In this document: piece after piece, positions 25,925 to 57,719 of the stretch
How positions within the stretch are numbered: position 1 is the first letter of the stretch
Layout: each line of letters opens with the position of its first letter
Source: Candidatus Sulfotelmatobacter kueseliae
Lineage (GTDB): Bacteria; Acidobacteriota; Terriglobia; Terriglobales; Acidobacteriaceae
Assembly: GCA_900290255.1 (NCBI GenBank)
Contig: OMOD01000122.1
Location: 14,314 to 78,313, forward strand
Reading direction: 5' to 3'
Length of the DNA stretch: 64,000 nt
Program-made: the position numbers and the translations under genes
The notes under the pieces: model-generated
What the model saw: the letters and a program-made list of their open reading frames with translations, nothing else
Databases searched by the model: none
What the model was told of the DNA's origin: nothing

Positions 25925-25975
25925 CCGTAGTGATTTCGCGCCCGAGCCTCAAAGCCTTGGCGCGTTTGCTTTTGT

Positions 25976-27310: not shown

Positions 27311-27349
27311 AGGCTGTGGGTCCATGCCCTCAGATATTCCACAGAACAA

Positions 27350-27622: not shown

Positions 27623-27678
27623 GGTGAACTGCTCAGCATCCCTGCGAGGACAACCACGGGTAGGTTAAGCACAACAGA

Positions 27679-29310: not shown

Positions 29311-29312
29311 TC

Positions 29313-30563: not shown

Positions 30564-30592
30564 AACGGACGAGAAATCAGGACCGGGGAGAG

Positions 30593-37526: not shown

Positions 37527-37543
37527 GGTGTGATTTCTCTTTC

Positions 37544-39018: not shown

Positions 39019-39031
39019 GGTCAGCTGCGCT

Positions 39032-39613
39032 TTACACAGAGTAGTGTTTTGCGATCCATTGTCGATAGCTGCTGCTCGTCACGTCCCGCACCCAGGCTTC
39101 GTTTTCGAGATACCAGGCCACGGTCTTGCGGATCCCGCTCTCAAATGTTTCCGTGGCACACCACCTCAGTTCTCGCTCGATTTTACTTGCGTTCATGGCG
39201 TAGCGGCGATCGTGACCGGGACGGTCCTTCACGAAAGTAATCAACTTCCGATGCGGAACAGGGTCACCGGGCCGCAACTCGTCGAGCAGCTCACACACCT
39301 TGTTCACGATCTCCATGTTCTTCTTCTCGTTCCCACCGCCAATGTTATAGGTCTCGCCTGGCTGTCCCTTGGCCAGCACGGTGCGGATGGCATCACAGTG
39401 GTCTTCAACATAGATCCATTCACGCACATTCTGTCCGTCGCCGTAAGCCGAGAGCGGTTCTCCGTTGCAGGCATTCAAAATCATCAAGGGAATCAGCTTC
39501 TCAGGAAATTGATAGGGTCCATAGTTGTTGGAGCAGTTCGTCGTGAGCGTGGGTAGGCCGTAGGTGTGATGGTATCCCAGTCCGCGAAGTACGTCAGCGC
39601 TCTTAGACTTATT
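39032..39613 (-). pseudogene. rfbB: 5'-truncated dTDP-glucose 4,6-dehydratase (only the C-terminal ~193 codons remain)
   Basis: Reading up from ORF 39032..39487 in frame gives ...[46 protein letters not shown]..., typical of mid-RfbB. The frame is closed by TAG at 39616-39614. No Rossmann GxxGxxG region or catalytic Tyr is found upstream in any frame. Confidence 0.8.
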
Positions 39614-40766: not shown

Positions 40767-41018
40767 ATGGAAGAATTGTTGACCAAAGTGCGGACGGCCT
40801 TTCAATCAGCGTTCAGCATTGATCCGCAGACCGTTACTATTGACACTGTACCAAGCGACGTTCCGGCTTGGGACTCCATGGGACATGTCACGCTGGCTAG
40901 TAGCCTCGAACAAGCCTTCGGCTTGACTTTCGATGTAGACGACCTGATGGCGATGGAGGACGTGAAATCAATCTGCCGGGTCGTACAATCCAAGCTAGGT
41001 CAGGTTCAACGTGCGTAA
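40767..41018 (+). CDS. Acyl carrier protein
   Basis: 83 aa; DVPAWDSMGHVTLASSLEQAFGLTF contains the DSxx attachment motif. Confidence 0.8.
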   Translation: MEELLTKVRTAFQSAFSIDPQTVTIDTVPSDVPAWDSMGHVTLASSLEQAFGLTFDVDDLMAMEDVKSICRVVQSKLGQVQRA

Positions 41019-42507
41019 TGGTATTGAGGGGAACTTCGCGCGCTGTCTGGTTGAGCGTTTGGGAGAAACCTCCTGTTTGATTGACGCGGCAACTGGGCAG
41101 ACCGTTCCTAGTCATGATCTCCCCAATCTGATTGTCGGTTTCGCGGCCGGTCTCCGATCGGCCGGACTGGGGCCGGGTGACAGGATGTTGGTGGGTTGTC
41201 GCGTGAGTCCAGCCAGCACGTTGGCCTACCTCGGCGCCATGTACGCCGGAGTGGTACCCGTGCCGACAGAAGAGCGCCTGCTGTCCGCCTCCGGAGGTTT
41301 CCTGCTAGCTCAGTCGCAAGCTAAAGTCGTATGGACCGACAAAGGGACCAAGTGCGATTGGCTGAAGAGCCATAGCGTCTGTCACATCGAAGGAACTTTC
41401 GAGGCCTGTTCTCCCGACTCGCTCCCGCCGCACCCTTGCGCAGAGAATGATCTCGCCGTCTTGATGCCGACGTCAGGTTCTACAGGCGTGCCTAGGTTGG
41501 TCATGGTCGCTCATAGCAACTTGAAGTCCAATACGGAAGCGATCATTCGCAGCCAACGTCTAGGAACCGATGAAAGGGCCATGCTGATCATGCCGGTGAG
41601 TTATTGCTTCGGCGCCAGCGTGATGCACACTCACCTTTATCAAGGCGGCGGAGTCGTCTTTGATTCTCGGTTCATGTTTCCGGACAAGGTGCTGCACGCC
41701 ATCAACACCTATGGCTGCACGACGTTTGCTGGAGTTCCGGTCATTTACAACGTTTTGCTCCGGCGGTCGAATCTCAAGTCGATCCCCCTGCCTAGTCTGC
41801 GCCGTTTTCTTCAAGCCGGAGGTGCGCTTGCTCCTGAAAATGTGCGGGAGATGCGCCACATCGTACCCACCGCAGAATTTCTGGTCATGTATGGCCAGAC
41901 CGAAGCCACAGCACGGATTTCCTGTCTGCCCAAGGCTCGTTTACAGGAGAAGCTGGGGAGCGCGGGCATTCCACTGGACAATCTTGAGGTCCGCATCGTG
42001 GATGAGGAAGGACGGGAAGTACCGCAGGGGCAGATCGGGGAAATTCAAGTCCGAGGTCCGTCGGTGTGCTTCGGATACCTGGATGATCCCGAATCTACCG
42101 ACCGCAAGTTCGGCGGCGGCTGGCTTAAGACCGGCGATTTTGCCTGTTGCGATAAAGATGGATATCTTTGGATCAAAGGGCGCACGGACGAGTTCATCAA
42201 AATTCGTGGCGTTCGGGTAAGCGTTGGTGAAGTCGAGACCAAGGTGGCGGCCATGCCCGGCGTTAGCGAATGTGCGGCGGTGGCAGTGAAACATCCAGAG
42301 GCCGGTGAAGCCTTGGCGCTACTGATCGTTCCTGACAACAGCGCGACAGAGAGCGCGGTTGCTGAAAATCATGGGGATGACCTCGGCGATCGAATCCGGC
42401 GCGCACTTCCGCCGCACTGGACCTGCGCTTCCGTCAAGATAGTCGCTGAATTGCCGAGAACAACGAATGGCAAGATCGCCCGTTCTCAGTTGCAGACGTT
42501 GTTATGA
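41011..42507 (+). CDS. AMP-dependent synthetase/ligase
   Basis: VLMPTSGSTGVPRLVMVAHSNL, YGQTE, WLKTGDFA, GKIARSQL. GTG start overlaps the ACP stop. Confidence 0.9.
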   Translation: MRNGIEGNFARCLVERLGETSCLIDAATGQTVPSHDLPNLIVGFAAGLRSAGLGPGDRMLVGCRVSPASTLAYLGAMYAGVVPVPTEERLLSASGGFLLAQSQAKVVWTDKGTKCDWLKSHSVCHIEGTFEACSPDSLPPHPCAENDLAVLMPTSGSTGVPRLVMVAHSNLKSNTEAIIRSQRLGTDERAMLIMPVSYCFGASVMHTHLYQGGGVVFDSRFMFPDKVLHAINTYGCTTFAGVPVIYNVLLRRSNLKSIPLPSLRRFLQAGGALAPENVREMRHIVPTAEFLVMYGQTEATARISCLPKARLQEKLGSAGIPLDNLEVRIVDEEGREVPQGQIGEIQVRGPSVCFGYLDDPESTDRKFGGGWLKTGDFACCDKDGYLWIKGRTDEFIKIRGVRVSVGEVETKVAAMPGVSECAAVAVKHPEAGEALALLIVPDNSATESAVAENHGDDLGDRIRRALPPHWTCASVKIVAELPRTTNGKIARSQLQTLL

Positions 42508-43667
42508 GCCAACTGGCAGAGCCTCGGTTAGCAGAACTCGAGCAGGCTGTCGGAGCGTTGCTGGATAAGCCGCCATACGCGGTGCCTCCCAGCGAACGTC
42601 GCGAGGCCTTGCTTGCCCTGTTCAAGCAGGAACTGAGCTACGCCTGCGACCGCAGCCAGCAGTTCCGCAATTACGTGCGGCACTGGCCAATCAGCTTGTC
42701 GGCCGCAGATGCGGTTGCCGATCTTCCATATCTGCCGGTCAGTACGTTCAAGGCCAATCCACCGTTGAGCCTGGTCGAGACCCGCGACATCAAGCGTACT
42801 CTCTCCTCCAGCTCGACCAGTGGCCAGATTCCCAGCCGGGTGGTTCTGGACGCCGCCACAGGCCGGCGGATGACCAGGGGCGTGACGGCGATCATTCGCG
42901 ATTTCATCGGACCGGCGCGCAGGCCCTATCTGGTCATCGATATACCAGAGAACTTGAAACCACAGGTTGAGCTGGGTGCGCGAGGCGCTGCCATTCAAGG
43001 TCTTGGCTCTTTCGCCACGGAAACTGTGTGCTGCTTGCGCCGTGACGATGCAGCAGATTCGGTCCTCGAGCTGGAGAAGCTTCTTGCCTGCGCTGAGAAA
43101 TGGAGAGACAGCGCAGTCTTGGTGTATGGGTTCACGTATGTGATCTGGACCCAGTTCGTGCAGCCCCTGCAGCGCCAAGGCGTCACGCTGCGCATGCCCA
43201 ACGTCCACGTCCTACACAGCGGCGGATGGAAGCGGCTGGAGCAGCAGGCAGTGACGAAAGACGCGTTCATGCGCGGCGTGGCTTCGGTCTTTGCCTGCAG
43301 CGCAGACCGTGTCATCGATTACTACGGTATGGTGGAGAATGTGGGCGTCGTTTATCCAGATTGCGAGCACGGCCACAAGCATGTACCCACGTTCGCGGAG
43401 GTGATCATCCGCGATCCGCTGACACTCGCGCCCGTCGAAGCCGGGCAGCAAGGACTGGTTCAAGTCTGCAGCGTTCTGCCCACGAGTTTTCCCGGATTCC
43501 TGCTGCTGACCGACGACATGGCGGAACTGATCGGTCAGGATGGTTGCCCATGCGGACGGCGCGGCACGTATTTCCGCTTCACGCGGAGGGTGCCAAAGGT
43601 GGAGGTGCGAGGCTGCGGCAATCTGGAAACCACCCGCTCGCGGCAAGGGACAGGTGCGCATGAGTGA
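42504..43667 (+). CDS. LuxE-like acyl-protein synthetase family protein
   Basis: LPYLPVSTFKANPPLSLV, LSSSSTSGQIPSRVVLD, LHSGGWKRLE. The overall layout resembles the LuxE/F390-synthetase-like adenylate-forming family. ATGA overlap with the upstream gene. Confidence 0.7.
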   Translation: MSQLAEPRLAELEQAVGALLDKPPYAVPPSERREALLALFKQELSYACDRSQQFRNYVRHWPISLSAADAVADLPYLPVSTFKANPPLSLVETRDIKRTLSSSSTSGQIPSRVVLDAATGRRMTRGVTAIIRDFIGPARRPYLVIDIPENLKPQVELGARGAAIQGLGSFATETVCCLRRDDAADSVLELEKLLACAEKWRDSAVLVYGFTYVIWTQFVQPLQRQGVTLRMPNVHVLHSGGWKRLEQQAVTKDAFMRGVASVFACSADRVIDYYGMVENVGVVYPDCEHGHKHVPTFAEVIIRDPLTLAPVEAGQQGLVQVCSVLPTSFPGFLLLTDDMAELIGQDGCPCGRRGTYFRFTRRVPKVEVRGCGNLETTRSRQGTGAHE

Positions 43668-44916
43668 TGTGATCCATTCGATTACCTCACCTGAGGAGAT
43701 CAACCGCGCGGCGCGGCAACTGCGGGAAACCGCGCTCGAAGCGGATCTCAGCCCTGACGTGGTGCTTGAAGTTTTCGAGCGGTGGTCTGCTGCCTTGGAT
43801 GCGCCAGGCCTGCGCGACGTTCCTGGTGCGGCCTTTCTCCGTCTCTGGCTCCGGCGCGGCACGTTGCAGCCGATTTTGCTCCGCGAGCTGGGCCCAGAAT
43901 CACTTCATGGTGGATGGCGGGAGGAAGGGCATGCCCGGCTGAAAGCATTTCCTCTGGGAGTAGTCGGTCACTGGCCGGCCGGGAACATTGAGATCCAGCC
44001 CGTCCTGTCTCTCACGTGTGCCTTGCTCGGCGGGAATGGCTGCTTGGTGCGGGTACCGAGCGGGTTGGTCGAGACAACGCGCCTGATCTTGGAAAAGCTG
44101 CTAGAGGTTGATCAGGCGGGTCTATTGACCAAGCGCCTATTCCTAGCCAGCTTCGATCATGCACGCACCGATTTGCACGCGGCCATAGCGCAGACCGTAG
44201 ACGGCGCTATGATCTGGGGTGGTGCCGAGTCAGTCTCGGAGGTGCGAGCGTTGCCCTTTCCTCACTGGGCGCGCGTGGTGGTCTTTGGTCCACGGCTCTC
44301 GGTGGCGGCGATGGATGCGGGCGCATGGGGCTGCCGGAACGAGCGGCCGTCGTGGTGCCGGCGCATCGCACGCGACGTGTGGCAGTTTGAGCAGCAAGCC
44401 TGTTCCTCGCCGCAGACGTTGTTTCTCGAGCGCGGCGACGACTGCGATCCCGGCGAGTTTGTCGAAGATCTGAAGTGCGCTTTTCAGGAGGAGAACCGAG
44501 CACATCCGCGGCGGGAAATCGAACCGGCGTTGACCTCGGCAATCTGCCAGGCCCGCGCGTCCTGGCTCTTAGATGATGCCGCGAATCGTGCGTGGTTTCC
44601 CGGGTCGCCCGATTGGACGATCTTACTAGGGAAAGGAGTGGACATACCTGAGCCGACGCAAGGCCGAACGCTCAGCGTGCTGGTCGCGGAGGACCTTATG
44701 GAGGTGGTCTCGCGATTCGATGGGACCGTGCAGACGCTGGGGTTGGCGATCAAGGACGCGGCGCGGGAGGAAACGCTAGCTGCGGCTGCAGGACGTCACG
44801 GAGTGGACAGGGTGGTGCGGCTTGGCCAGATGCATGTTTTCGGCTCCCCGTGGGACGGGGTAGATTTGGTGCGGCCGATGGTGCGTCTGGTTCGGCATGT
44901 GTGTTCGCAGGATTAG
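43660..44916 (+). CDS. LuxC-like acyl-CoA/acyl-ACP reductase family protein
   Basis: ORF 43540..44916; ATG 43660 overlaps the upstream stop by 8 nt. FPLGVVGHWPAGNIEIQPVLSLTCALLGGNGCLVRVPSG and EQQACSSPQTLFL resemble the LuxC (aldehyde-dehydrogenase-like) family. Confidence 0.7.
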   Translation: MSDVIHSITSPEEINRAARQLRETALEADLSPDVVLEVFERWSAALDAPGLRDVPGAAFLRLWLRRGTLQPILLRELGPESLHGGWREEGHARLKAFPLGVVGHWPAGNIEIQPVLSLTCALLGGNGCLVRVPSGLVETTRLILEKLLEVDQAGLLTKRLFLASFDHARTDLHAAIAQTVDGAMIWGGAESVSEVRALPFPHWARVVVFGPRLSVAAMDAGAWGCRNERPSWCRRIARDVWQFEQQACSSPQTLFLERGDDCDPGEFVEDLKCAFQEENRAHPRREIEPALTSAICQARASWLLDDAANRAWFPGSPDWTILLGKGVDIPEPTQGRTLSVLVAEDLMEVVSRFDGTVQTLGLAIKDAAREETLAAAAGRHGVDRVVRLGQMHVFGSPWDGVDLVRPMVRLVRHVCSQD

Positions 44917-44940
44917 AGCTGGAGTGGGAGAGAAGTCCAG

Positions 44941-45840
44941 ATGAATCATGCAGAACTTTTCCTGGAAGCCTTGGATCGAAAGGCCAAGATCTTTGCCCCC
45001 AATGCCCGCGCCACATTCGAAGCCAACCGGGAGCTGTGCTCGTGGTTGCTGAGTCCGCTGGCACGGTGGGCTGAGGCAGCTTACGGGAGCAACGTATTTG
45101 ACGAGGCCGCACGCGGCTACGCCGAATATTGCTTCGGCGTGGCCAAGGCCAAGCAGGTTTACGAACGCGCCGGCAGATACACTCCCGAAGCCATGCCGGA
45201 AATCATGTCCGGGGTCTATGAGCATGAGGGCTACATGATTCCGTACATGTGGGCAGCAATTCTCATCTATCCGTTTTGGCCGTCGATGGTCAGCCATATT
45301 GCGCTATTCCGCGACGAGTTCGTGCGGCGGTTACCCCGAAATGCCAGTGTGCTCGAGCTGGCCTGTGGCCATGGCGTGTTAAGTCTTCTGGCTGCCGAGG
45401 AGCGCCCGGACATTCAGGTCGAAGGTACCGATATCAGCGCACCCGCCGTGGCCGTAGCCAATCGCCTGCTGGCTGTTTCCCGACACGCGGGCCGCGTTCG
45501 CTTCGCAGTCCAGGACGCACTGCAACCCGACAACCAAGGCGGGAACGGAAAATGCCAGGGCGTGATCTCCGCCATGCTGGCCGAGCACCTGATGGATCCA
45601 AAGCCGCTGTTTGCGACGATGGGGCGGCGCGTCGCGCCGGAAGGACTGGTATTCTTCAGTACAGCTCTGGAGTCGCCGCAGCGGGACCACGTGTTTGAAT
45701 ACAACCACGAGAGCCAGCCTCTGCAGATGGCCGAGATTGCTGGGCTGCGGGTGACCCGGCTCGTATCCGATGCCAGTGCAATACCCACCGGATCACGCTT
45801 CCTGCCCCGGGCCACGGCCATGATTCTGAAGTCTCGCTGA
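44941..45840 (+). CDS. Class I SAM-dependent methyltransferase
   Basis: VLELACGHGVLSLL (motif I), DISAPAV, a Rossmann-type layout. Confidence 0.75.
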   Translation: MNHAELFLEALDRKAKIFAPNARATFEANRELCSWLLSPLARWAEAAYGSNVFDEAARGYAEYCFGVAKAKQVYERAGRYTPEAMPEIMSGVYEHEGYMIPYMWAAILIYPFWPSMVSHIALFRDEFVRRLPRNASVLELACGHGVLSLLAAEERPDIQVEGTDISAPAVAVANRLLAVSRHAGRVRFAVQDALQPDNQGGNGKCQGVISAMLAEHLMDPKPLFATMGRRVAPEGLVFFSTALESPQRDHVFEYNHESQPLQMAEIAGLRVTRLVSDASAIPTGSRFLPRATAMILKSR

Positions 45841-46126: not shown

Positions 46127-47200
46127 GTGTACGGAACTGCTCCGCAGTTTGGCATCTATGGCGTGGCCACGGGCAGCGGCAACTCGGTGGGTGTGTACGG
46201 TAATGGCGTCGACGGCCTGCAGGGCGCCGGCACCATCCACGGCGTCTACGCCAACGGCACCCAATACGGCGTCACCTCCTTCACTTCTGCCGGCGTTGCG
46301 GGAATCTACGGGGTTTACGGAGGCGCAAGCGGAACCGGGCAGACCTGGCTTGATAACACAGGCACTGGCGGCGCCGTTTGGGCTGACACCATTAGCCCCA
46401 CCGGCGGTTACTTCATCCCCGCCTTGCTCGCCACGACCGACAATAACGAAGCAGCTGTCTTCGAGAACAATTCAAACGATTACGAAACGATCGACGTTTA
46501 CAACTATGGGAGCGGGGGCACCGGCAACGTCGTGCGCGCCGAGGGCAGCACGGGAAGTTGCACCCTCACCGGCGGCGGTGACACCGCCTGCACGGGCGTC
46601 CTGAAGTCCGTGGTTGCAACCAGCCAAGGTGCGCGGCGGGTCGAAACCTACTCTGTACAGTCATCGGAGAACTGGTTTGAAGATGCGGGCACGGCCCAGC
46701 TTGTCAATGGAGCCGGCCGCGTCAACCTGGAATCCGTCTTCGGGCAAACTGTGAATACCGGCGTCGAATATCACGTCTTCCTGACTCCGGACGGCGACTG
46801 CAAGGGGCTCTACGTCAGCGCCAAAACAGCGTCCGGTTTTGAGGTACACGAACTCGGCGGCGGCACTTCCAGTGTCGCATTCGAATACCGCATCATGGCC
46901 AAGCGCGTAGGTTATGAGAGCGTCCGCCTTGCGGACGTCACGGAGCGATTCAACCGACAAGAAGCACGAAGCAAGAACATGCGGCGACCTGCGCGGTCGT
47001 CAGCTGATCGGCGATCCAGTTCACGGATAACAACGCCGCCGCCAGTGCATCCAGTGGTCGAGCAACAACTGGCCCCGAAAATGCTGGTGCTGCCGGTTCT
47101 GGCATCGGCTGCGCCGCTGCCAGCGCCGGTAACGCCCAAGCTGACACCCACGCCGCCAGTCCGGGCTGCGCTGCAACCGATGGCTGCTCAACCCAAGTAA
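46127..47200 (+). CDS. Gly-rich GxYG-repeat protein with conserved C-terminal domain; no signal peptide, possibly 5'-truncated
   Basis: GTG start. Repeats GIYGV/VGVYGN/HGVYAN/GIYGVYGG are followed by ETYSVQSSENWFEDAGTAQLVNG...YHVFLTPDGDCKGLYV...FEYRIMAKRVGYE and a Pro/Ala-rich tail. Confidence 0.45.
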   Translation: MYGTAPQFGIYGVATGSGNSVGVYGNGVDGLQGAGTIHGVYANGTQYGVTSFTSAGVAGIYGVYGGASGTGQTWLDNTGTGGAVWADTISPTGGYFIPALLATTDNNEAAVFENNSNDYETIDVYNYGSGGTGNVVRAEGSTGSCTLTGGGDTACTGVLKSVVATSQGARRVETYSVQSSENWFEDAGTAQLVNGAGRVNLESVFGQTVNTGVEYHVFLTPDGDCKGLYVSAKTASGFEVHELGGGTSSVAFEYRIMAKRVGYESVRLADVTERFNRQEARSKNMRRPARSSADRRSSSRITTPPPVHPVVEQQLAPKMLVLPVLASAAPLPAPVTPKLTPTPPVRAALQPMAAQPK

Positions 47201-47575: not shown

Positions 47576-50500
47576 CTAGTCATCAAAGTTAAGGCACCAC
47601 TCTCCATCCAAACGTGATAGGCTGGCGTCCCCTCGAACTAGGAGTTCCAGAAGTTCGGGCTTGCGAGAGTGCGCGATTGTCCAGCCACCGCGGCCGCATG
47701 TGAAGAAACAATTTTTCTGCGATAAGGCGTCCATCAAGTGGATTGGAGCAGTCCCGTGGAGGCCGACCGCGCCTTGACTCCAGGCATCGTAGAAAAGATG
47801 GTCAAGAATGTCCTTGCCGAACCGGCTCTCACCACCGATCTGCACCGCTTGGGCCACATCGCCAATCTTCGGATAGTAGATATACCAGCCAACGACCTTC
47901 TGACGGTCATCACGAAGAACAATCTTCCGCAGTTCTGACCGGGGGTGCATCCGCTCCATGAACGTCAAGAGCCATTTCAGCGAATCGACTTCATAATCAG
48001 GCAGAATTGAATGGTCACTGCGGAATTTCGCTAAACAGTGAAGAAGCACTTCAACGTCTAGCTCTGCGGCCTGCAGATGAGACGGGATCGGACGTAAGGG
48101 GCTGAAGGGAAGTCTTGCACCGATGGCGTCCACGACGCTACAAAAGGGTCTTGCGGCAATCCTAAGGCTGGCGGAGAGCGTGGGCCCCGCTAACTTGGAC
48201 ATGGCGTGGGCAGCGTAATTCGTCAGCCGCAAGGGGCGTGCCCAGTGCATGCTCAAGGGCATAATAGTCCTGAAGCCCATTCGTTCCAGCAGACTCCTAG
48301 ATATATCGTTTGCTGAATCCGTCAACGAAATGTCCTGCTCTCCTGCCATGTACGCCGTCAGCAGACGCAAGCCAGCCAGCGAGGACCGCGCCTCCGGAGC
48401 AACCACAAAATTGCCACCAACGGCGATGCAAAGCGGCCGTCCGCGGAGAGACATTTTCCGTCGGACTACACCTAGGAAGCCTACAATTCTGCCGTTCTTG
48501 CCTTCATAAACACGGGAAGGCGTTCTCTCGTCGATCAAAGGACTCCTGAAATAAAGCTCCTCAAAATATGAGTGGAGTCCGGACGGAGGAGCGCCCTTGC
48601 CGTAACGCAGGAATTTCCACCACAGGTCCGCTACCTGCGGGATATCGTCGACAGCAAACGGGCGCAGACCCGGATCTTTCCGCGCCAACCCTAGCGAAGG
48701 CCCATCTTCCGCCTTCATACCCCGCCCGAGAACACTCGCCAGTTTTCGTGGGGTAGGGGCATCGTAAAGAGCCGCGAGCGGCGGGGTGCATCCTAACTCG
48801 CTTTGGATCAAGGCGAACAACTGCGCCGCAGCCACGGAGTGGCCGCCTAAAGCAAAAAAGTCGTCGTCTGGCCCAATCTCGCTGCCATTCAACACACGCT
48901 GCCAAAGCGGGATCAAGGATTGGACTAACGTGGCCTCCGACATCCCGGAGATGGTCGGCGTATCCGAGAATTGCTGTGGCGCCCCGGGTGTCGAGCCCAA
49001 AGCCGGCGACACGGATTGCCGCGTCATTTCTCGGTTTGGAATGCGTTTGTAAACGATCTCAGTGGCGGAAGCAGTCTCGCTCCACTTGAGCCGGGCTAGC
49101 TGCGTTACTTTCCGTGAAGGATCGGCCGCCAGCTCTTCAAAGATGGAGCCTAGCGTCACCAGCCATTCTCGTACGGTAAGATCCGCAAAGAGCTTGATGT
49201 CATAGTGGCAGTGCAACGCCAGGTTTTCTTCTGCCTCCACCACATTCAGATAAAGCTCGAACGATTCGAAAGCCTTGGGGTTGGCCTCGTAGTCGACGGC
49301 AAATCCGAATTGCGGTAACTCGTTTTGCTTGAACTTCTTGATGTTGGTAAGTCCAACCGAGATCGGGGAAATGCCAGGCGTAGGCGCAGCCGGGTGGAGA
49401 TCTTCCATCAAGCTCACCATTGTAAAGATGGCGTGCTCGTGAGCGGCGAGAAGATCGGCTTGTACGCGCTTTAGGAAAGCCTCCGCTGCTTCGCCTTCGC
49501 GTAACTCCACGGCAAAGGGAAGAAGGTTGACGCAGTGTCCGACGAGACCAGGCTGTCCGATAGACGGTTGTTCCGCAGTGGGCAGAGTGATCACAAAGCG
49601 ATGCTGCCGCGAGATGCGGGCTAGCAGAATGGCCAGAGAACTGAGCAGGACCGCGAAGAAGCTGCAGTTATGTTCGGCTCCCAGCGCTCTGAGATCGCGC
49701 ACTACCGAGGCTGAAATCGAGTGATCGAGACGGCGGGCGTTGAATTCACGCCGCGCACTCCGCGGGTGGTCTGTCGGAAGCACGAGCACGGGGAAACCAT
49801 CATGGAATTTCGCGTGCCAATAGTTGCCCGCTTGCTTGAATTCTGCGGAGCGCTCCCGCTCCGTTGTGTTCTTCACGTAATCGCCGTAACTGTCTGCGAG
49901 CTCTAGGTGCACAGGCGCACCTGAGAGTTCTTCCGAATAGAAGGCGCAGAGATCGTGGATCAGGACATCCAGCGACCAGCCATCGCAAATAATGTGGTGT
50001 GCCGTGATGATGACCGCAGCACGCTCGGCACCGAGCAAAACCATTTGGCAGCGGAACAGAGGGCCTGCGGGCAGAGGGAACGGCAATGCTGTTTCATCGG
50101 CAATCAGTTTGCGGAAACGTTGCTCTTGCCAGTCCGGTTCGTTGGCCGGAACCTGCATTGAGAGATCAGTCACCGGCATCGCGATCTTCAGGGCCGGGGC
50201 GATCTTCATCATCCTGCCAGTTTCGTCGAAACTGGTGCGTAGGGCGTCATGTCGTTCCACCAGACGTTCCATGGCGCCCATCATTTTCGCGACTGAGATC
50301 TTGCCGGTGAATCGCAGCGTCATGGATTCGTTGTAAGACGCCGACAAGCGCTCGGACAAACGCGAGGACGAGAAAATACCCCGCTGCGGAACCGTAGCTT
50401 CGATATCGCGTGGACTGGAACGCACGATGGCGGGCTTCGAACCATCTGTCGATAATTTCTGGACCACCGGCGTCTCATCTTCCGCGGCTATGCGATTTCC

Positions 50501-53500
50501 ACCGCCTTTCTCGAGAAGCGCAACCAGCCGGGCGATCGTGCGCGCTTGCTCGACAACCGCTTCTTCGAGCGTGCTGCCCTTGGACTGGATACTTGGCTGA
50601 GCATTCGTCCGGACGTCCGCAAGAGAGTTTGCGGTCGGAATAGGAGTGGCTTCGGCGAGAGCCTCGGCAGGCAGGGTCGAATCAAGATGCGCCGCCAACA
50701 TGTCAATGTTGGGGAACTGCTTCATGAGCTGACTGAAGCTGACCTTCACGGAGAACTCCTTTTGGACAGCGAAGGCGACCTGGGTTAACGACAGCGAGTC
50801 GAATCCCTGCTCCATGAACGTAGCGGAAGTGTCAATTTGCGAACGTTCGCGTCCGGAGACAGGTAAGAGCAGATCAATCACGCGCGCAGCGATGCGGTCC
50901 TTGCGCGAGCCTGCCCCGCGTCCCGACGTAACGGCCTCTGTGAGTGCAGACGGGAGAGCAGACGGCGCCACGGAGGGCTCGGTTGATGGCTCAACTCGGA
51001 CGCCAGCCGCCGCACTCGAACTCCTGTTCTCGGGATTTTGCGCAGTGGACGCCTCGGCGGGATCCACCCAGAACCGCTGCCGCTCAAACGGGTAGGTCGG
51101 CAATGGTATGCGATGACGCTCTTCGTTAGTGTAAAAGCCTTCCCACTCAATGGACACGCCATTCTGCCAGAGGGACCCCAGGGCAAAAAGCAGAGTAGCC
51201 CACTCGGTGTTGTTCTCCGCCGTGTCGGCAAACGTCGGGATCGCGGTACAAGGATGATCGGGCGTAAAGTGCTGGCGGGCCAATGCACACATTGTGGAAC
51301 GTGGTCCGCATTCCAGGAAAAAGTCGTGTCCTTGCTCCTTAAGGCATAGGATGGCTTTTGAAAACTCCACTGTAGCCCGAGCATGATTGGCCCAATACGC
51401 GGGATTGCTGGTCTCGGCGGCGGTAATGGAGCGTCCTGTTACCGTCGAGACAAAGGGCTTGGCCGGAGCACGCAAGCGGATTTTGGCAACGGCCTGGCGC
51501 AACGGCTCGATCATGGGATCCATCATCGCGGAGTGGAAGGCATGTGAGGTGTGCAGTTGGCGGCAGACAAAGTTTTCGGCCTCGAGTTGCTTCCGGAATT
51601 GCGCAATATTCTCTTCCGGCCCCGACACCACGCATAGAGCGGGAGCATTGTTGGACGCAAGCTGAAGTCCAGGCGGAAGAATCTTTGCAACCGATTCCGC
51701 GCTGCTGCTCACGGCCATCATGGAGCCACGCGGCAGTTCCTGCATCAAGCGTCCCCGCAGAGCGACAACGCTGAGTGCATCCTCGAGATCCCACACCCCG
51801 GCGAGCGTGGCAGCGACAAACTCTCCGATGCTATGTCCCGCCATCAGGGCAGGCTCGACGCCGAGGCTTTGCCAGAAGCGCGCCAGCGCGTATTCGATGA
51901 CAAAAATCGACGGCTGTGTGAAGAACGTGTCCCGCAATGATATCTGAGCCGTCTCTTCGTCTCCGCTCTGGGGATAAAGAAGTTCGCGCAAATCCCGGCC
52001 GAGATGCGGTTTAAGGCACTCGCAACAATCGTCAACGACTGCGCGAAAAAGCGGCTCGTCACGATAGAGGTTCAATCCCATGTTGACGTACTGCGTGCCC
52101 TGACCGCCGAAAAGGAAAACGATGGGTGGATCGCGACGCTCGCAGCGTTTGCTCCCGCAGCGTAACGGATTCGGTTGCAAGAGCAGCTTGGCGGCATCGC
52201 CGGAATCGGCGGCTACCACGAATCGCCGCTGCGCCAGCTGTTTGCGCCCGGTTTGGAAGGTGTAGGCCACATCGGCCAGATCTTCCGGTGCGCTCGCGAG
52301 ATGCTCGGCCAACGCCCGGCTGTAGGCATCAAGGGCTGCTGGACTCTTGGCTGAGAGCGGCAAGAGTTGCAGTGGGCGCGAAGGCCGCCCGCTCTTTGCC
52401 ACCGGCGCTTCTTCCAGGATGACGTGGACATTCGTCCCGCCAAAGCCAAACGAGCTGACCGCTGTGCGACGCACTCCCTTTCCACGAGGAAACGGGATGA
52501 GCTTGTCGGCCATGAGGAACGGGCTGCCACCGAAATCGATCTTGGGATTGGGTGTCTTGAAATGCAGGGTCGGAGGAATTTGCTCGCGATGGAGAACGAG
52601 GGCCGCTTTGATCAGGCCTGCAACTCCAGCGGCATTGGTGGGATGCCCGATGTTTCCTTTGATGGATCCGATATAACAGAAGTTCTTCTTGTCGGTCTTG
52701 TTCTCAAAAACTCTTCGCAGAGCTTCGAATTCAATCGGATCGCCGACCGGGGTGCCCGTACCGTGCGCCTCGATGTAGCCGATAGTCTCGACCGGGACGT
52801 TAGCATTTGCCTGCGCCAGGGCAATGGCCTCCGCTTGGCCGTCCACGCTCGGGGCCAGAAAAGAAGCGGGGCGGGCACCGTTGTTGTTCTTGCCGGTGCC
52901 GCGAATGACGGCATAAATGGTGTCGCCATCGGCTAGAGCTTCGGCATACCGCTTGAGGACGACCACGCCGGCGCCGTCGCAGAACATGGTTCCGGTAGCG
53001 TCAGCATCAAAAGGACGGCAGTGGCCATCTTTGGAGAACGTGCCTCCCTGCTGATATAGGAATCCGCTCCTCTGCGGCACCGTGATGTCGATGCCGCCCG
53101 AGAGTGCGATGTCACATTCGTAGTCGAGCAGTGAGTGGTAGGCTTCGTCGATAGTCAGGAGCGTAGTCGAACAGGCTGTATTGAGGCTGACCGCGGGTCC
53201 GCGAAGGTCCAGCAGATAAGCGGTGCGCAGGGCGATGTAGTCTTTTTGGTTGCCGTACTCAACGGCCAGCTTGCCGGCCATGGCCAACAAATCCGGTTGC
53301 GTCAAGAGGTTCGTGGTGTAGTAGTGATTGTCACCGATACCCGCGAACACTCCAATGCGCCCTTTATAGCGCTCGGGGTCGTACCCGGCGTTTTCCAGCG
53401 CCTGCTGCGCCAGTTCGAGAAAGATCCGCTGCTGCGGGTCCATGACCTTGGCTTCAAGCGGATTGATGCCAAAGAACGCGGCATCGAAGAGATCCGCGCC

Positions 53501-55654
53501 CTCGATCAAGCCGCGGGCCCGGATGTAATCGGGATCGCGGCGCAGATGGGGATCGATGCCAGGTCCCAGTTCTTCGGGTGTGAAAAAAGAGATCGATTCG
53601 ACGGCATTGCAGAGGTTGCGCCACAGCTGATCGAGATTGGCCGCTCCCGGGAAGCGGCCCGTCATACCGATCACCGCGACACCTTCCCGCAGAAGCCCGT
53701 CCTCGGTGGCCGGATTTCGTTCTGACTTGGGCTGCGGATTCCGCCGATGCCGCGCCCGCTCTTCAGCTTCGGCAACCAGATCGGACTTGCTCTCACTCTC
53801 TTCTAGGAACTCTGCGAGCTTCGCGATCGTGGGATACTGAAAGACCTTGACGGGAGGAATCTCGCGCCCAAAGCGCGTGTGATACTGATTCACCATACGG
53901 ACCGCTGCCAGCGAATTGCCGCCGAGATCGAAGAAGCTGTCATCAATTCCAACCTCTTCGAGTTGCAGCAGCTCGCACCAGAGACTTGCCAGTTGCCTTT
54001 CGGCTGCTGTGCGCGGAGCGATAAATTCCTGGGCGAGCAGCGGCCGTTTGCCCTCGGGCCGGGGCAGGGCTTTGCGATCAATCTTGGCGTTCGGAGTCAG
54101 AGGGAATTTCTCCAGACGCACGAAAACGGAAGGGATCATGTAGTCGGGAAGCGTAGTTTTGAGGAACTGAACGAGAGAGGTGGAACTCAGACCTTCGCGG
54201 CCCGTGTAATAGGCGGCTAGGCGTTTCTCTCCCGGACGGTCCTCGCGTAGGATCACGACGGCCTGGGCGATTCCTTCAACTTTGGCCAGCGAGCTTTCGA
54301 TCTCGCCCAGTTCGATGCGAAAGCCGTGGAGCTTCACCTGGTTGTCGAGACGCCCCAGAAATTCCAGTGAACCGTCGGGCCGATAGCGGACTTGGTCACC
54401 AGTACGGTAGAGCCGCTCACCCCGTCCCTCGCGGGTGGGATCGAGGACAAACCGTTCAGCCGTCCACTCGGGGGGGTTGAGATACCCACGAGCCAAACCC
54501 GCACCGCCAATCCAGAGCTCGCCGGGAGTCCCTTGGGAAACCGGTTTGTGGTTTTCATCGAGCAGGTGGAATTGCGTGTTGGCAATGGGTGTGCCGAGCG
54601 AGACCAGGTCGGGTGAGGTCACGCGCTCAGTCGAGGACCAGATCGTGGTCTCCGTCGGCCCATACATGTTCCAGAGTTCGCGGCAGCGAGGCAGCAATTG
54701 CCGAGCGATGTCCGCGGTCAGAGCCTCTCCCCCGCAAAAGACTCGCAGGTCACTCTTTCCTTCCCAGCCGTTTTCGAGAAGCATGCGCCAGGTCGCCGGC
54801 GTCGCCTGCATCACGGTGATCGCGTGTTGATGTAGCAGCGTCTGGAGTTCACGGGCGTCCGCAGCCTGTTCCGCAGTGGCGAGAACAATCTCGGCGCCGC
54901 AGACCAGCGGGAGCAGGAATTCCAGGAGCGAGATGTCAAAGGAACTCGTCGTGACCGCCAGGAGCCGATCGGAAGAAGCTATGCCCGGTGTTTCCGCCAT
55001 CGACAGCAAGAAATTGACCAGTGCCCGGCGCTGGATCATGACCCCCTTGGGTTTTCCCGTCGAGCCCGAAGTGTAAATCAGATAGGCGAGATGTTCGGGC
55101 TTTCCAGATGAGGCGAGGTTGGTCGCCGGCAGCCCGGCGATCGACTGATTCTCGACGTCGAGTGAAATAACTCGCGCAGCAGTTTCCGGCAGGCTCCCCC
55201 GCTTGGAAGAATGTGTCAGGAGAAGAGGGACTGCGGAGTCCGCCAGCATGAACGCCAGACGGTCGTTCGGAAACTTCGGATCCAGGGGCAGGTAAGTTCC
55301 GCCGGACTTGAGGATGGCAAAAAGGCTCACAACGGAAGCGAACGAACGGTCAAGATACACACCCACCACGCTCTCAGGACCGACTCCTTGCTGGCGAAGG
55401 AAGTGTGCTAGGCGGTTTGAGCGGGAATTCAGCTCCCGGTAGGAAATTCGTTCTGCACCCAGGGAGAGCGCGGGAGCGTCAGGCGTACGCTCGGCTTGCT
55501 CCTCAATCAGCTCGTGCGGGCCTCGCCGCAGGGGCGCAAAAGTTCTTGCGACACCACGAGTCAGTTTCCCGTGACCCGGGCCACTAGTCTTGGAGGGCGC
55601 TGTCGAACCACCATCCCGGACTGCAATTTCTTCGACATCACTGCGTAACTTCAT
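47576..55654 (-). CDS. Hybrid NRPS-PKS megasynthase, domain order A-T-KS-AT-T-C-T-(GNAT-like), 2692 aa
   Basis: Single uninterrupted ORF. The core motifs of every domain were located by eye (see the domain sub-features). Confidence 0.95.
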   Translation of the reverse strand: MKLRSDVEEIAVRDGGSTAPSKTSGPGHGKLTRGVARTFAPLRRGPHELIEEQAERTPDAPALSLGAERISYRELNSRSNRLAHFLRQQGVGPESVVGVYLDRSFASVVSLFAILKSGGTYLPLDPKFPNDRLAFMLADSAVPLLLTHSSKRGSLPETAARVISLDVENQSIAGLPATNLASSGKPEHLAYLIYTSGSTGKPKGVMIQRRALVNFLLSMAETPGIASSDRLLAVTTSSFDISLLEFLLPLVCGAEIVLATAEQAADARELQTLLHQHAITVMQATPATWRMLLENGWEGKSDLRVFCGGEALTADIARQLLPRCRELWNMYGPTETTIWSSTERVTSPDLVSLGTPIANTQFHLLDENHKPVSQGTPGELWIGGAGLARGYLNPPEWTAERFVLDPTREGRGERLYRTGDQVRYRPDGSLEFLGRLDNQVKLHGFRIELGEIESSLAKVEGIAQAVVILREDRPGEKRLAAYYTGREGLSSTSLVQFLKTTLPDYMIPSVFVRLEKFPLTPNAKIDRKALPRPEGKRPLLAQEFIAPRTAAERQLASLWCELLQLEEVGIDDSFFDLGGNSLAAVRMVNQYHTRFGREIPPVKVFQYPTIAKLAEFLEESESKSDLVAEAEERARHRRNPQPKSERNPATEDGLLREGVAVIGMTGRFPGAANLDQLWRNLCNAVESISFFTPEELGPGIDPHLRRDPDYIRARGLIEGADLFDAAFFGINPLEAKVMDPQQRIFLELAQQALENAGYDPERYKGRIGVFAGIGDNHYYTTNLLTQPDLLAMAGKLAVEYGNQKDYIALRTAYLLDLRGPAVSLNTACSTTLLTIDEAYHSLLDYECDIALSGGIDITVPQRSGFLYQQGGTFSKDGHCRPFDADATGTMFCDGAGVVVLKRYAEALADGDTIYAVIRGTGKNNNGARPASFLAPSVDGQAEAIALAQANANVPVETIGYIEAHGTGTPVGDPIEFEALRRVFENKTDKKNFCYIGSIKGNIGHPTNAAGVAGLIKAALVLHREQIPPTLHFKTPNPKIDFGGSPFLMADKLIPFPRGKGVRRTAVSSFGFGGTNVHVILEEAPVAKSGRPSRPLQLLPLSAKSPAALDAYSRALAEHLASAPEDLADVAYTFQTGRKQLAQRRFVVAADSGDAAKLLLQPNPLRCGSKRCERRDPPIVFLFGGQGTQYVNMGLNLYRDEPLFRAVVDDCCECLKPHLGRDLRELLYPQSGDEETAQISLRDTFFTQPSIFVIEYALARFWQSLGVEPALMAGHSIGEFVAATLAGVWDLEDALSVVALRGRLMQELPRGSMMAVSSSAESVAKILPPGLQLASNNAPALCVVSGPEENIAQFRKQLEAENFVCRQLHTSHAFHSAMMDPMIEPLRQAVAKIRLRAPAKPFVSTVTGRSITAAETSNPAYWANHARATVEFSKAILCLKEQGHDFFLECGPRSTMCALARQHFTPDHPCTAIPTFADTAENNTEWATLLFALGSLWQNGVSIEWEGFYTNEERHRIPLPTYPFERQRFWVDPAEASTAQNPENRSSSAAAGVRVEPSTEPSVAPSALPSALTEAVTSGRGAGSRKDRIAARVIDLLLPVSGRERSQIDTSATFMEQGFDSLSLTQVAFAVQKEFSVKVSFSQLMKQFPNIDMLAAHLDSTLPAEALAEATPIPTANSLADVRTNAQPSIQSKGSTLEEAVVEQARTIARLVALLEKGGGNRIAAEDETPVVQKLSTDGSKPAIVRSSPRDIEATVPQRGIFSSSRLSERLSASYNESMTLRFTGKISVAKMMGAMERLVERHDALRTSFDETGRMMKIAPALKIAMPVTDLSMQVPANEPDWQEQRFRKLIADETALPFPLPAGPLFRCQMVLLGAERAAVIITAHHIICDGWSLDVLIHDLCAFYSEELSGAPVHLELADSYGDYVKNTTERERSAEFKQAGNYWHAKFHDGFPVLVLPTDHPRSARREFNARRLDHSISASVVRDLRALGAEHNCSFFAVLLSSLAILLARISRQHRFVITLPTAEQPSIGQPGLVGHCVNLLPFAVELREGEAAEAFLKRVQADLLAAHEHAIFTMVSLMEDLHPAAPTPGISPISVGLTNIKKFKQNELPQFGFAVDYEANPKAFESFELYLNVVEAEENLALHCHYDIKLFADLTVREWLVTLGSIFEELAADPSRKVTQLARLKWSETASATEIVYKRIPNREMTRQSVSPALGSTPGAPQQFSDTPTISGMSEATLVQSLIPLWQRVLNGSEIGPDDDFFALGGHSVAAAQLFALIQSELGCTPPLAALYDAPTPRKLASVLGRGMKAEDGPSLGLARKDPGLRPFAVDDIPQVADLWWKFLRYGKGAPPSGLHSYFEELYFRSPLIDERTPSRVYEGKNGRIVGFLGVVRRKMSLRGRPLCIAVGGNFVVAPEARSSLAGLRLLTAYMAGEQDISLTDSANDISRSLLERMGFRTIMPLSMHWARPLRLTNYAAHAMSKLAGPTLSASLRIAARPFCSVVDAIGARLPFSPLRPIPSHLQAAELDVEVLLHCLAKFRSDHSILPDYEVDSLKWLLTFMERMHPRSELRKIVLRDDRQKVVGWYIYYPKIGDVAQAVQIGGESRFGKDILDHLFYDAWSQGAVGLHGTAPIHLMDALSQKNCFFTCGRGGWTIAHSRKPELLELLVRGDASLSRLDGEWCLNFDD
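47579..48682 (-). other. C-terminal ~370-aa tandem GNAT-like domain (paralogue of 25976-27310); not a TE or R domain
   Basis: No GxSxG or Rossmann motif. FVVAPEARSSLAGLRLL resembles GNAT motif A. Collinear similarity to the stand-alone 444-aa protein. Confidence 0.55.
48731..48943 (-). other. Peptidyl carrier domain T3 (Ser2273), no cognate A domain in cis
   Basis: DDFFALGGHSVAAAQL. Confidence 0.8.
49100..50413 (-). other. NRPS condensation domain
   Basis: HHIICDGWS (HHxxxDG at residues 1886-1892), preceded by ATVPQRGIFSSSRL and followed by YGDYV and LPTDHPR. Confidence 0.8.
50675..50902 (-). other. PKS-type acyl carrier domain T2 (Ser1620)
   Basis: FMEQGFDSLSLTQVAF. Confidence 0.8.
51215..52126 (-). 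other. Acyltransferase domain (Ser1275), malonyl-type HAFH motif
   Basis: FLFGGQGTQY, MAGHSIGEFVAA, LHTSHAFHSAMM. Confidence 0.85.
52409..53686 (-). other. Ketosynthase domain (Cys828, His964, His1004)
   Basis: VAVIGMTGRFPGA, SLNTACSTTLLTI, IEAHGTGTPVGDPIE, GSIKGNIGHPTNAAG, SSFGFGGTNVHVILEE. Confidence 0.9.
53801..54013 (-). other. Peptidyl carrier domain T1 (Ser581)
   Basis: DDSFFDLGGNSLAAVRM. Confidence 0.85.
54050..55522 (-). other. NRPS adenylation domain (residues ~45-535), predicted glycine-specific
   Basis: LAYLIYTSGSTGKPKGV, SSFDISLLE, NMYGPTETT, GELWIGGAGLARGY, YRTGD, PNAKIDR. Hand-extracted 10-residue code: D-I-L-Q-F-G-M-I-W-K. Confidence 0.85.
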
Positions 55655-56570: not shown

Positions 56571-57719
56571 GTGAACCAACAAATCCAATTCTCGAGGAGA
56601 AGAACCGGAGCGCTATGTCTGTGCGCGGTCTCAGCCGTTCTTATGGCCACGCTGTGGCCCTTTGATTTTCTTCCAAGGAATGCCGTCGACTGGATTCAAG
56701 GCACAAACGGACTAAGGTTCAGGAAAGCCGGCGTGGTCCTCAGCAGCGATCCTCTGAAAATGGCAAATACCGAGGCCGATTCGTACAGCGTTGAGGTCTT
56801 GCTTCGGCCGGCAAGCGTCAAGCGGGACTATACGATCTTGGGCTTCCACAACCCGACACGGACGAAACAGTTGCTCGTCAAGCAATGGACGGACGGTCTT
56901 CTGGTGACTCACGATGCTTCCGTCGATCGCGACGGAACGGGAACTATCAAGTTCGATGTTAACCATGCGTTCGTTCCTGACAAACTCGTCCTTGTGACAC
57001 TCTCTTCGGGGCCAAGTGGAACGAGAGCTTATCTGAACGGCCGACCGGCAGGTTCTTTCCCTCGATTCAAGATCTCACGCAGTGAATTGGCAGGCGAGAT
57101 CGTTCTTGGGACTTCACCAGTGACCTACCAGCCATGGCCGGGTGAAATCCATGGTCTTGCCGTCTTCGCAAAAGAGCTCACGGCTGACGAAGCACTCCAG
57201 CACTACCATGACTGGAGCAATCCTGACGGCCGCACCCCGGATCGTGAAGCAGCGATCGCTCAGTACAGCTTTACTGAGGGGGCGGGCCGTGAAGTTCAGA
57301 ACGACATATCCTCCGAACCGAATCTGCGAATACCTTCAGCTTTCTCAGTCCCGCACAAAGCCTTGTTGCGGCCTGCGGCCGAGGAGTTCAGGCCTGACCG
57401 GCGCTACGCGTTCGACATCGTGATCAATATCGCGGGATTCGTTCCGTTAGGTCTGATTATGTGCTCGTATCTCATGTGGACGAAAGGTCGTTGGAGAGCG
57501 ACCCTGATCGCCATCTTCCTCTGTGGAACGCTGAGCTTCATGATTGAGGTGTTGCAGTACTACATCCCGCGACGGGAATCGGGAACGACCGACGTCATCA
57601 CGAACACGCTGGGAGCTGCTCTGGGTGCCGCGCTCGTCCATGCAAGTGTCTTTCGGCTGATACTAGAGAAGATGACGCTAATCCCCGGCGCTCAAGGGGC
57701 CTCGCAACACGGACGATGA
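56571..57719 (+). CDS. VanZ-like membrane protein with N-terminal anchor and LamG/concanavalin-like extracytoplasmic domain
   Basis: C-terminal VINIAGFVPLGLIMCSYL...FLCGTLSFMIEVLQYYIPRRESGTTDVITNTLGAALGAAL is VanZ-like. The middle region (SVEVLLRPASV...YLNGRPAGSF) looks like a lectin/LamG beta-sandwich. Confidence 0.65.
   Translation: MNQQIQFSRRRTGALCLCAVSAVLMATLWPFDFLPRNAVDWIQGTNGLRFRKAGVVLSSDPLKMANTEADSYSVEVLLRPASVKRDYTILGFHNPTRTKQLLVKQWTDGLLVTHDASVDRDGTGTIKFDVNHAFVPDKLVLVTLSSGPSGTRAYLNGRPAGSFPRFKISRSELAGEIVLGTSPVTYQPWPGEIHGLAVFAKELTADEALQHYHDWSNPDGRTPDREAAIAQYSFTEGAGREVQNDISSEPNLRIPSAFSVPHKALLRPAAEEFRPDRRYAFDIVINIAGFVPLGLIMCSYLMWTKGRWRATLIAIFLCGTLSFMIEVLQYYIPRRESGTTDVITNTLGAALGAALVHASVFRLILEKMTLIPGAQGASQHGR

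Follow-up and report, generated by a model that had tools for sequence, protein, structure and literature searches.

How does a modular assembly line free its product when it carries no thioesterase (TE)? This question is raised by a hybrid nonribosomal peptide synthetase-polyketide synthase (NRPS-PKS) encoded in a stretch of 64,000 nucleotides from Candidatus Sulfotelmatobacter kueseliae (contig OMOD01000122.1, positions 14,314 to 78,313), which was analysed as a whole and is called the window hereafter. The open reading frame (ORF) of this megasynthase lies on the minus strand (47576-55654), encodes 2692 amino acids (aa) plus a stop and shows the order A-T1-KS-AT-T2-C-T3-X, where A, T, KS, AT and C are adenylation, carrier, ketosynthase, acyltransferase and condensation domains and X is the terminal segment (47579-48682, minus strand; residues 2325-2692, 368 residues). 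X is a candidate carrier-protein-dependent acyltransferase and release domain with a predicted tandem-GNAT fold, like that of N-myristoyltransferase (NMT). That it is such an acyltransferase, serving as the release domain of an assembly line set in a polysaccharide locus, is a reading to which about an even chance is given, its donor, its acceptor and its part in release being deduced from context. The assembly line probably transfers its product to another molecule rather than hydrolysing it.

The same protein has been deposited as SPF40209.1, where it is annotated as 'putative Phenylalanine racemase (ATP-hydrolyzing)'. A Pfam scan resolved A(51-524)-T(554-617)-KS(657-1032)-AT(1179-1480)-T-C(1752-2190)-T, with no match at gathering level past residue ~2312. 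All core motifs of T1, T2, T3, C, KS and AT are intact. The block from A to T2 (50675-55504, minus strand) contains the A domain at 54083-55504, followed by T1 (GGNS), KS (NTACS), AT (GHSIG and HAFH) and T2 (GFDS), while the C domain (49085-50401, minus strand) keeps its HHIICDG motif (49979-49999) and the T3 carrier domain (48719-48937, minus strand) its GGHS motif (48836-48850) with Ser2273. Between T3 and X there is a linker of only ~20 aa, GMKAEDGPSLGLARKD (48671-48718, minus strand), with an in-frame Met inside. Ketoreductase (KR), dehydratase (DH), TE and reductase (R) domains were all absent from the megasynthase in the Pfam scan, and neither a thioesterase nor an Abhydrolase domain was found by Pfam in the megasynthase or in the other scanned ORFs of the window, those at 32.7-36.7 kb being judged by eye.

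This architecture brings in one alternative at once. The HAFH motif of the AT domain is one that we take to be of the malonyl type, and since KR and DH are absent, the beta-keto group would be retained; therefore, a tetramate-type Dieckmann release is chemically possible. The T3 thioester could thus leave as a tetramic acid, with X catalysing or chaperoning the cyclisation, or acylating the freed product later. In PKS-NRPS tetramate lines, a KS-AT-T-C-T series with a malonyl-type AT and no KR or DH gives the classic tetramate precursor, and the absence of both TE and R domains fits such an exit. Nevertheless, a GNAT-fold Dieckmann cyclase is not known, and most members of the X family are found in loci without any KS, so the function of the family as a whole cannot be Dieckmann chemistry. 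A cyclising release is therefore held to be decidedly improbable.

The limits of X could be set from its homologues. The free-standing ones begin with 'MGVRPF', which matches 'GLRPF' at residue 2329, and the boundaries proposed in the first-pass annotation, a reading made from the DNA letters before the present analysis, proved right. The nearest relatives in a homologue search were free-standing proteins of 343-370 aa with 55-71% identity over 91-99% of X, carrying names such as 'hypothetical' or the generic 'GNAT'. This word-index search gave only free proteins of ~365 aa, without the query's own 2692-aa protein or a single fused orthologue, and long multidomain targets were apparently overlooked. 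When an exhaustive profile search was made at E<=1e-3, 2,091 clusters were obtained (clustered at 50% identity), 923 of them with E<=1e-30; the family is mostly from Acidobacteriota and nearly all its members are free-standing, with ~365 aa. Just three of the best 150 matches (P0241, P0271 and P0286) are longer than ~410 aa, and the first is a fragment of a fused megasynthase. As to the other two, P0271 (801 aa) joins X to a C-terminal ATP-grasp domain and P0286 (761 aa) joins it to a C-terminal Acetyltransf_6 (FemAB/CelD-like) domain; the window holds separate genes of both partner types, ATP-grasp at 30548-31864 and 1042-2304 and FemAB-like at 6484-7635. The conserved motifs of X are GFLG, the stretch GGNFVV-PEARSSLAGL (P-loop-like, 48368-48397), TDSAN (48308-48322) and RLDGEW (47597-47614), and R2423, D2446, H2619, D2623 and D2683 are among its invariant residues.

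The fusion of X to the assembly line is conserved. One genome per GTDB species was scanned, which gave 61 loci, almost all of them in Acidobacteriota/Terriglobia, and the fused frames were traced by tblastn and ORF extension. The A-T-KS-AT-T-C-T-X fusion was present in the genomes of nine other species (L010, L013, L014, L016, L018, L020, L022, L049 and L059); L020 bears its fused copy on the minus strand, and in the remaining eight the frame before X is open for 1,975-2,464 codons and contains collinear matches to A, T1, KS, AT, T2, C and T3. The fragment P0241 shares 66% identity with the window megasynthase in KS-AT-T-C-T and 60% in X; its linker is ~95 aa longer, and it is nearly identical to the L014 copy in a neighbour-joining (NJ) tree. 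The T3-X linkers of the other fused orthologues have ~85-125 residues, compared with ~20 in the window.

These data also bear on the possibility that X is a functionless addition, originated by read-through, by an assembly artefact or by a decaying fusion. Such an origin would agree with the fact that the nearest relatives by identity are free genes, and with the short linker and its in-frame Met. Nevertheless, the same 2692-aa frame is found both in the deposited protein and in a second public copy, other genomes supply ten further fused frames before X, and of the 528 positions conserved to 95% or more in 66 free copies, the fused ones retain 516 (98%). Read-through and assembly artefact are ruled out by this evidence, and the alternative as a whole may be regarded as effectively refuted. 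An internal start at Met2316 was also set aside, since it would be preceded only by a G-rich stretch at a distance of one base and since the linkers of the orthologues are long and open.

The history of the window copy may be a different one from that of its orthologues. Its X has retained the Trp of X position 237, a residue conserved to at least 95% in the free copies, whereas 8 of the other 10 fused copies have a replacement there. Moreover, it clusters with free copies in the NJ tree, which has no support values and serves as a hint only. Together with the short linker, these two features make it possible that the window X stems from an independent fusion, or from gene conversion by a free copy.

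Which kind of protein is X? In sequence comparisons, no Pfam or NCBIfam model covers it, nor ORF444 (25976-27310, plus strand), a free-standing protein of the window which the first-pass annotation had taken for its paralogue. The NMT and NMT_C models of Pfam match neither of them even at E<=1, and PF02388 and PF13480 (FemAB and Acetyltransf_6) match neither, the ORF at 6484-7635 serving as a positive control that matches both models. A sequence search of the PDB gave only AAC(2') for X, at E=0.018, and nothing for ORF444. Below the Pfam threshold, X matches Acetyltransf_7 (E=1.4e-3) and Acetyltransf_1 (E=7e-3) over X residues 52-144, and the stretch that had earlier been pointed out as GNAT motif A (VVAPEARSSLAG) coincides with this region; its consensus in 77 X-family members is P-[ED]-x-R-[ST]-x-L-A-[GA].

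The AlphaFold model of X (predicted local distance difference test, pLDDT, 86.9; predicted template modelling score, pTM, 0.86) shows two alpha/beta lobes connected by a long helical hairpin. When compared with the PDB by Foldseek, the top matches were N-myristoyltransferases (E ~6e-14, probability 1.0, full length, template modelling (TM) score ~0.55), with Eis-like acetyltransferases also matched (3n7z and 2hv2, E ~3e-13, root-mean-square deviation (rmsd) 4.8-5.3 A). There were 270 PDB matches at E<=1e-3, and all 50 among the matches listed are tandem-GNAT enzymes. The alignments with NMT extend over 360-400 columns for the 368-residue query, with TM-scores of 0.52-0.58, so that both lobes are covered over their full length, at an identity of 10-13% for X or ORF444. 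The ORF444 model (pLDDT 77.8, with the last ~45 residues disordered) matches NMT likewise, at E ~1e-13. In this way, the guess that two GNAT-like halves are present was borne out by both models, which are predicted tandem GNATs with the same best PDB matches, NMT and Eis-like enzymes. X thus belongs, by its predicted structure, to the GNAT fold as defined at the superfamily level.

The P-loop gives a further indication. The canonical Q/R-x-x-G-x-G/A signature is not satisfied in the 77 X-family sequences, as its first Gly is missing: R99 is present in 76 of the 77, position +3 is taken by L, P, M or F (Gly not being one of the four most frequent residues) and position +5 by G or A. In ORF444 the corresponding region reads R133-A-V-[ASG]-x-[ST]. 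Substitutions in the P-loop (GGSLVGL in SbzI) have been reported as characteristic of the carrier-protein-dependent GNATs SbzI and FeeM (PMC11685415). The deviation in X may thus lend soft support, at the level of sequence, to a dependence on carrier proteins. At the other end of the domain, the R, L, D and G of RLDGEW are invariant in the 77 sequences and are placed 6-10 residues before the end. A C-terminal [LF]-D-G-[ED] motif is common to X (RLDGEW), to ORF444 (PFDGDA, in the region 27170-27190) and to a 395-aa ORF444-like group (L002, L017, L021 and others), which terminates exactly at ...LFDGDS[ST]L-stop. In NMT, the C-terminal carboxylate serves as the catalytic base.

A possible dependence on carrier proteins is also suggested by the neighbourhoods of the family. 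By hidden Markov model (HMM) searches, a carrier domain was found within 1.5 kb in 24 of 71 X copies, nine being fused and 15 standing beside a small acyl carrier protein (ACP), while in ~20 further copies it was located 3-8 kb off, in the same cluster. The co-occurrence with carrier proteins, whose survey had been proposed as a check, is far above chance by our judgement, which was made without a formal background rate. The small ACP directly adjoining free X genes is 70-88% identical to the ACP of the window at 40767-41018, and it is usually found inside a cassette which in the window (40767-45840, plus strand) is composed of this ACP, an AMP ligase (41011-42507), LuxE-like (42504-43667) and LuxC-like (43540-44916) proteins and a methyltransferase (44941-45840). 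About half of the 61 acidobacterial loci have the cassette, conserved at 60-88% identity, beside X-family genes, and in the window it converges on the megasynthase. As listed, the ORFs of LuxE and LuxC share 128 nt, so LuxC probably starts further downstream than given. A similar ACP/ligase/LuxE/LuxC set, of unproven function, has been described in the flagellin glycosylation islands of Aeromonas (PMC7874193). In a dispersed layout, which was also observed, one to three X genes in tandem come after the cassette, and then a free C domain, a P450, an A-T didomain and an ORF444-like gene. In L060, a tight operon contains a luciferase-like oxygenase, an adenylating enzyme, a carrier protein (CP) and an X which is only 38% identical, and in L001 an ACP immediately precedes X. 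A genomic coupling of X to a carrier protein plus an adenylating enzyme was thereby found.

The cassette, in turn, opens the way to an on-line tailoring role, in which X would N-acylate the free amine of a T3-held intermediate, using acyl-CoA or the cassette ACP (40767-41018) as donor, with release taking place elsewhere. It adjoins X-family genes in about half of the loci and the megasynthase itself in the window; the architecture implies a starter amino acid, which gives the chain a free amine; and acyl-CoA is the donor of both N-acyltransferases, NMT and Eis, that match the fold best. However, the assembly line would then have no release catalyst, the fused genes of L014, L018 and L059 have no cassette within 10 kb, and in ligase-CP-X trios such as that of L060 the sole carrier is the obvious donor. 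Tailoring is consequently regarded as unlikely.

A further alternative derives from the last module. In the window megasynthase and in every fused orthologue (10 fused genes), C-T3 has no A domain, and the loading of T3 must therefore come in trans or from the N-terminal A domain. This leaves room for rival roles of X. In particular, X could be the loader that charges T3 with an acyl group from acyl-CoA or with an aminoacyl group from aminoacyl-tRNA. The missing A domain would be explained, Fem-type tandem GNATs do use aminoacyl-tRNA, and CurA and GphF provide examples of GNAT domains by which an adjacent ACP is loaded (PMC11685415). Nevertheless, the known GNAT loaders are single-lobed, N-terminal and precede their ACP, free X genes adjoin a dedicated adenylating enzyme that is already able to load the ACP, no Pfam signal for FemAB or Acetyltransf_6 is present in X, and release would again be unexplained. 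Loading is, in our estimate, quite unlikely.

The comparison with ORF444 may provide a second system of the same logic, at a greater distance than had been supposed. The first-pass annotation had aligned the terminal domain with the whole of this free-standing protein by eye and called the two paralogues. BLASTP aligned X and ORF444 in no more than 127 N-terminal residues, at 30% identity, and its E-value of 6e-4 passes narrowly the limit of 1e-3 that had been set for significance. When family alignments of 33 sequences each (A2 for X and A3 for ORF444) were compared by hhalign, a probability of 78% and E=1.8e-5 were obtained over 245 collinear columns with ~23% identity. The by-eye alignment is therefore above chance, although weak, with BLASTP reaching no further than 127 residues. 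The pairs LRPF/LREA, GFLG/AYLG, VVAPEARS/VAEPPYRA and KVVGWYIY/KLDGYAVV were reproduced by hhalign; as for the pair LDGEW/FDGDA, the C-terminal motif exists in both proteins, but the hhalign blocks extend only to KVVGWYIY/KLDGYAVV. A second ORF444-like subfamily of ~395 aa from other genomes (A4) is related to the ORF444 family with a probability of 100% and E=6e-56, and to the X profile with E=1.6e-5. Among all six-frame ORFs of the window, X and ORF444 are the reciprocal best non-self HMM matches (E=1.1e-3 and 0.11), the latter being the value at which the ORF444-family HMM scores X, and some sequences in other loci are matched by both HMMs. The FemAB-like protein of the window (6484-7635) is matched by neither. 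X does not belong to the ORF444 sequence family; the two represent separate families of one superfamily and are homologous at that level only. Since the profile identity is ~23% and each of the two families has its own orthologues, 'paralogue' overstates the relation, and the term has to be dropped: they are distant superfamily relatives, and the closest relatives of X are the free ~365-aa proteins found elsewhere.

The ORF at 46127-47200 (plus strand; 357 aa, rich in Gly, Thr and Tyr, with 'YGV' repeats and no Pfam or NCBIfam match) was considered as a third copy in the window and rejected, since it resembles neither X nor ORF444. In related loci (L019 and L020), a free X gene stands at this position.

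ORF444, a predicted tandem GNAT of a separate, distantly related family, is directly upstream of a 90-aa ACP (27350-27622, plus strand) and a 543-aa adenylating enzyme of the acyl-AMP/CoA-ligase type (27679-29310, plus strand), as had been noticed from the DNA letters. The trio is strictly syntenic in three other contigs (L068, L069 and L070), within the series GT2, epimerase, flavin monooxygenase, PLP enzyme, MetA-like protein, ORF444, ACP, ligase, flavin monooxygenase and ATP-grasp. In the window, the operon (22259-31864, plus strand) likewise comprises two flavin monooxygenases, one on either side of the trio, with a PLP enzyme like O-acetylhomoserine sulfhydrylase and a MetA-like homoserine O-acyltransferase between the first of them and ORF444, and an ATP-grasp protein at the end; its content suggests a route for the synthesis, activation and transfer of an unusual amino acid derived from homoserine.

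The acceptor has to be sought in the setting of the locus. The glycan genes of the window comprise Bac_transf, several glycosyltransferases (GTs), a Wzx-type flippase, WbsX, a 2-epimerase, a polysaccharide deacetylase, rml genes and a UDP-glucose dehydrogenase. The closest free X homologues sit in exopolysaccharide (EPS) loci among flippases, deacetylases, sulfotransferases and GTs. This glycan context rests on Pfam tables, as tblastn with the EPS proteins of the window was too insensitive for the other loci. In L014, L018 and L059, Bac_transf and a GT2 are directly upstream of the fused gene, this GT2 being 62-63% identical to that of the window (9005-10045), and the genes checked downstream of the fused gene in L014 are unrelated. 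The window GT2 is paired with the polysaccharide deacetylase (10063-10815; the pair at 9005-10815, plus strand). By inference only, this pair is a candidate source of the acceptor amine, and would create a free amine as NodB does before NodA. The megasynthase region is flanked by dTDP-rhamnose genes (rmlD-, rmlC-, rmlA- and rmlB-like; 36690-39487, minus strand) and by a UDP-glucose/GDP-mannose dehydrogenase gene (60681-62045, plus strand). A VanZ/LamG-domain protein (56571-57719) adjoins the megasynthase start, and homologues of it (47-50% identity) are near the fused gene in L010, L013 and L049, and also in L019.

From the fusion, taken in the Rosetta-stone sense, the ligase-CP-X trios and the missing TE, we infer a transfer from a thioester to a nucleophile other than water. 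In the proposed mechanism, the phosphopantetheine arm of T3, bearing an aminoacyl-polyketide-(aminoacyl) thioester, would enter the donor site of the N-terminal GNAT lobe, formed by the GGNFVV strand and the P-loop-like turn PEARSSLAGL. A nucleophile, most likely an amine, would be held mainly by the C-terminal lobe and attack the thioester, the chain being freed as an amide (or ester) on the non-water acceptor instead of by the action of a thioesterase. By analogy with NMT, the N-lobe would hold the phosphopantetheine thioester and the C-lobe most of the acceptor. As the gene sits in an exopolysaccharide locus, the most likely acceptor would be an amino sugar belonging to a glycan, either lipid-linked or polymeric. 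In trans, ORF444 would do likewise with an acyl or aminoacyl group loaded by the neighbouring ligase on the neighbouring ACP.

Several observations have to be set against this release by acyl transfer. About a third of the X copies, those remaining in the neighbourhood survey, have no carrier domain within 10 kb by HMM. The best structural matches, NMT and Eis, use acyl-CoA and not carrier proteins; moreover, the predicted model of X reaches TM-scores of only ~0.55 with an rmsd of 5-7 A, and only a few residues underlie the P-loop argument. Also, the A-less C-T3 of every fused gene leaves the full chain on T3 only presumed, and a beta-ketoacyl-aminoacyl thioester on T3 could exit by Dieckmann cyclisation without any acyl transfer. 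The first-pass annotation had proposed that both proteins move a carrier-bound group to a non-water acceptor, with the fused copy replacing a thioesterase. The E-value, the fold, the motif, the co-occurrence with carriers and the absence of a TE speak for this interpretation, which is thus supported in part: the two proteins are no longer paralogues, and it is from context that donor, acceptor and release function are drawn.

A more specific version may be advanced, although only tentatively: no free small molecule would be released, and the built-in NMT-like domain would graft the aminoacyl-polyketide onto a macromolecule. This would be a lipid-linked exopolysaccharide unit, acylated on an amino sugar that has lost its N-acetyl group, or, with less likelihood, a surface protein of the PEP-CTERM/TIG type. 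The free-standing family would then be a glycan-decorating toolkit for acyl and aminoacyl groups borne by carrier proteins. If X is the release catalyst, a cis-acting tandem-GNAT transferase would join the short list of assembly-line terminations and its T-X didomain would be a portable means of joining NRPS/PKS products to amines. There would also be a first function for a family of 2,091 clusters that is typical of soil and peat Acidobacteriota, and a tie of megasynthases of the secondary-metabolite type to exopolysaccharide decoration, with a bearing on the capsules and biofilms of abundant, poorly cultured bacteria. In any case, a vague 'orphan' biosynthetic gene cluster (BGC) becomes a directly testable hypothesis.

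Among known systems, NMT (PDB 1nmt, 1iyl and 6ehj) is the best full-length structural match to both X and ORF444, being a single chain with two GNAT lobes. Its N-lobe bears the donor site and a long acyl thioester is passed to an amine. However, NMT is a eukaryotic enzyme that takes myristoyl-CoA as donor and modifies the N-termini of proteins, whereas X is bacterial, is fused or adjacent to carriers and is found in glycan loci. The Eis-like proteins 3n7z and 2hv2 have a bacterial tandem-GNAT architecture like that of X. Eis enzymes use acetyl-CoA as donor and contain a third, SCP2-like domain; they show no similarity to X at the sequence level and lack a carrier-protein context. Tandem GNATs of the FemX/FemAB and Acetyltransf_6 (CelD-like) type are common in cell-envelope and EPS loci, and one is present in the window (6484-7635), but the donor of Fem enzymes is aminoacyl-tRNA and X and ORF444 have no PF13480 or PF02388 match. 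Release by acyltransferases other than TEs is known from the RifF-type amide synthases (NAT fold), PapA5 and fungal carnitine-acyltransferase domains. These share the concept with X, although their folds are unrelated and none is a GNAT fused as the last NRPS-PKS domain. In the GNAT loading domains of CurA and GphF, as in X, a GNAT is built into a PKS beside a carrier domain; nevertheless, they are N-terminal, single-lobed, act as decarboxylase/loader and come before the ACP, while X is C-terminal, tandem and comes after T3.

A functional likeness is found in the altemicidin pathway, where it has been proven that SbzL loads the carrier protein SbzG and that the GNAT SbzI moves the acyl group from this carrier to an amine (PMC11685415). 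The three-gene logic of SbzL, SbzG and SbzI is that of the ORF444-ACP-ligase trio and of the ligase-CP-X trio of L060, and the P-loops are non-canonical in both SbzI (GGSLVGL) and X (RSSLAGL). However, SbzI is single-lobed, works in trans on a dinucleotide and is not the terminal domain of a megasynthase. GdvG/AprG (goadvionin) and FeeM (which synthesises N-acyl amino acids) are also GNATs that convert an ACP-bound acyl group in trans into an amide with a peptide or an amino acid (PMC11685415), but they are free-standing, single-lobed and from other families, with a RiPP peptide or a free amino acid as acceptor. In the literature, no NRPS or PKS ending in a GNAT or tandem-GNAT domain was found, coverage being incomplete and the result amounting to absence of evidence only, which agrees with the initial remark that no characterised assembly line ends this way; nor did searches on tandem GNATs with carrier proteins, NMT-like PKS domains and Sulfotelmatobacter BGCs give a description of X. 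In this context, both the chemistry and the superfamily are already known, while the X family and its cis-terminal architecture are new.

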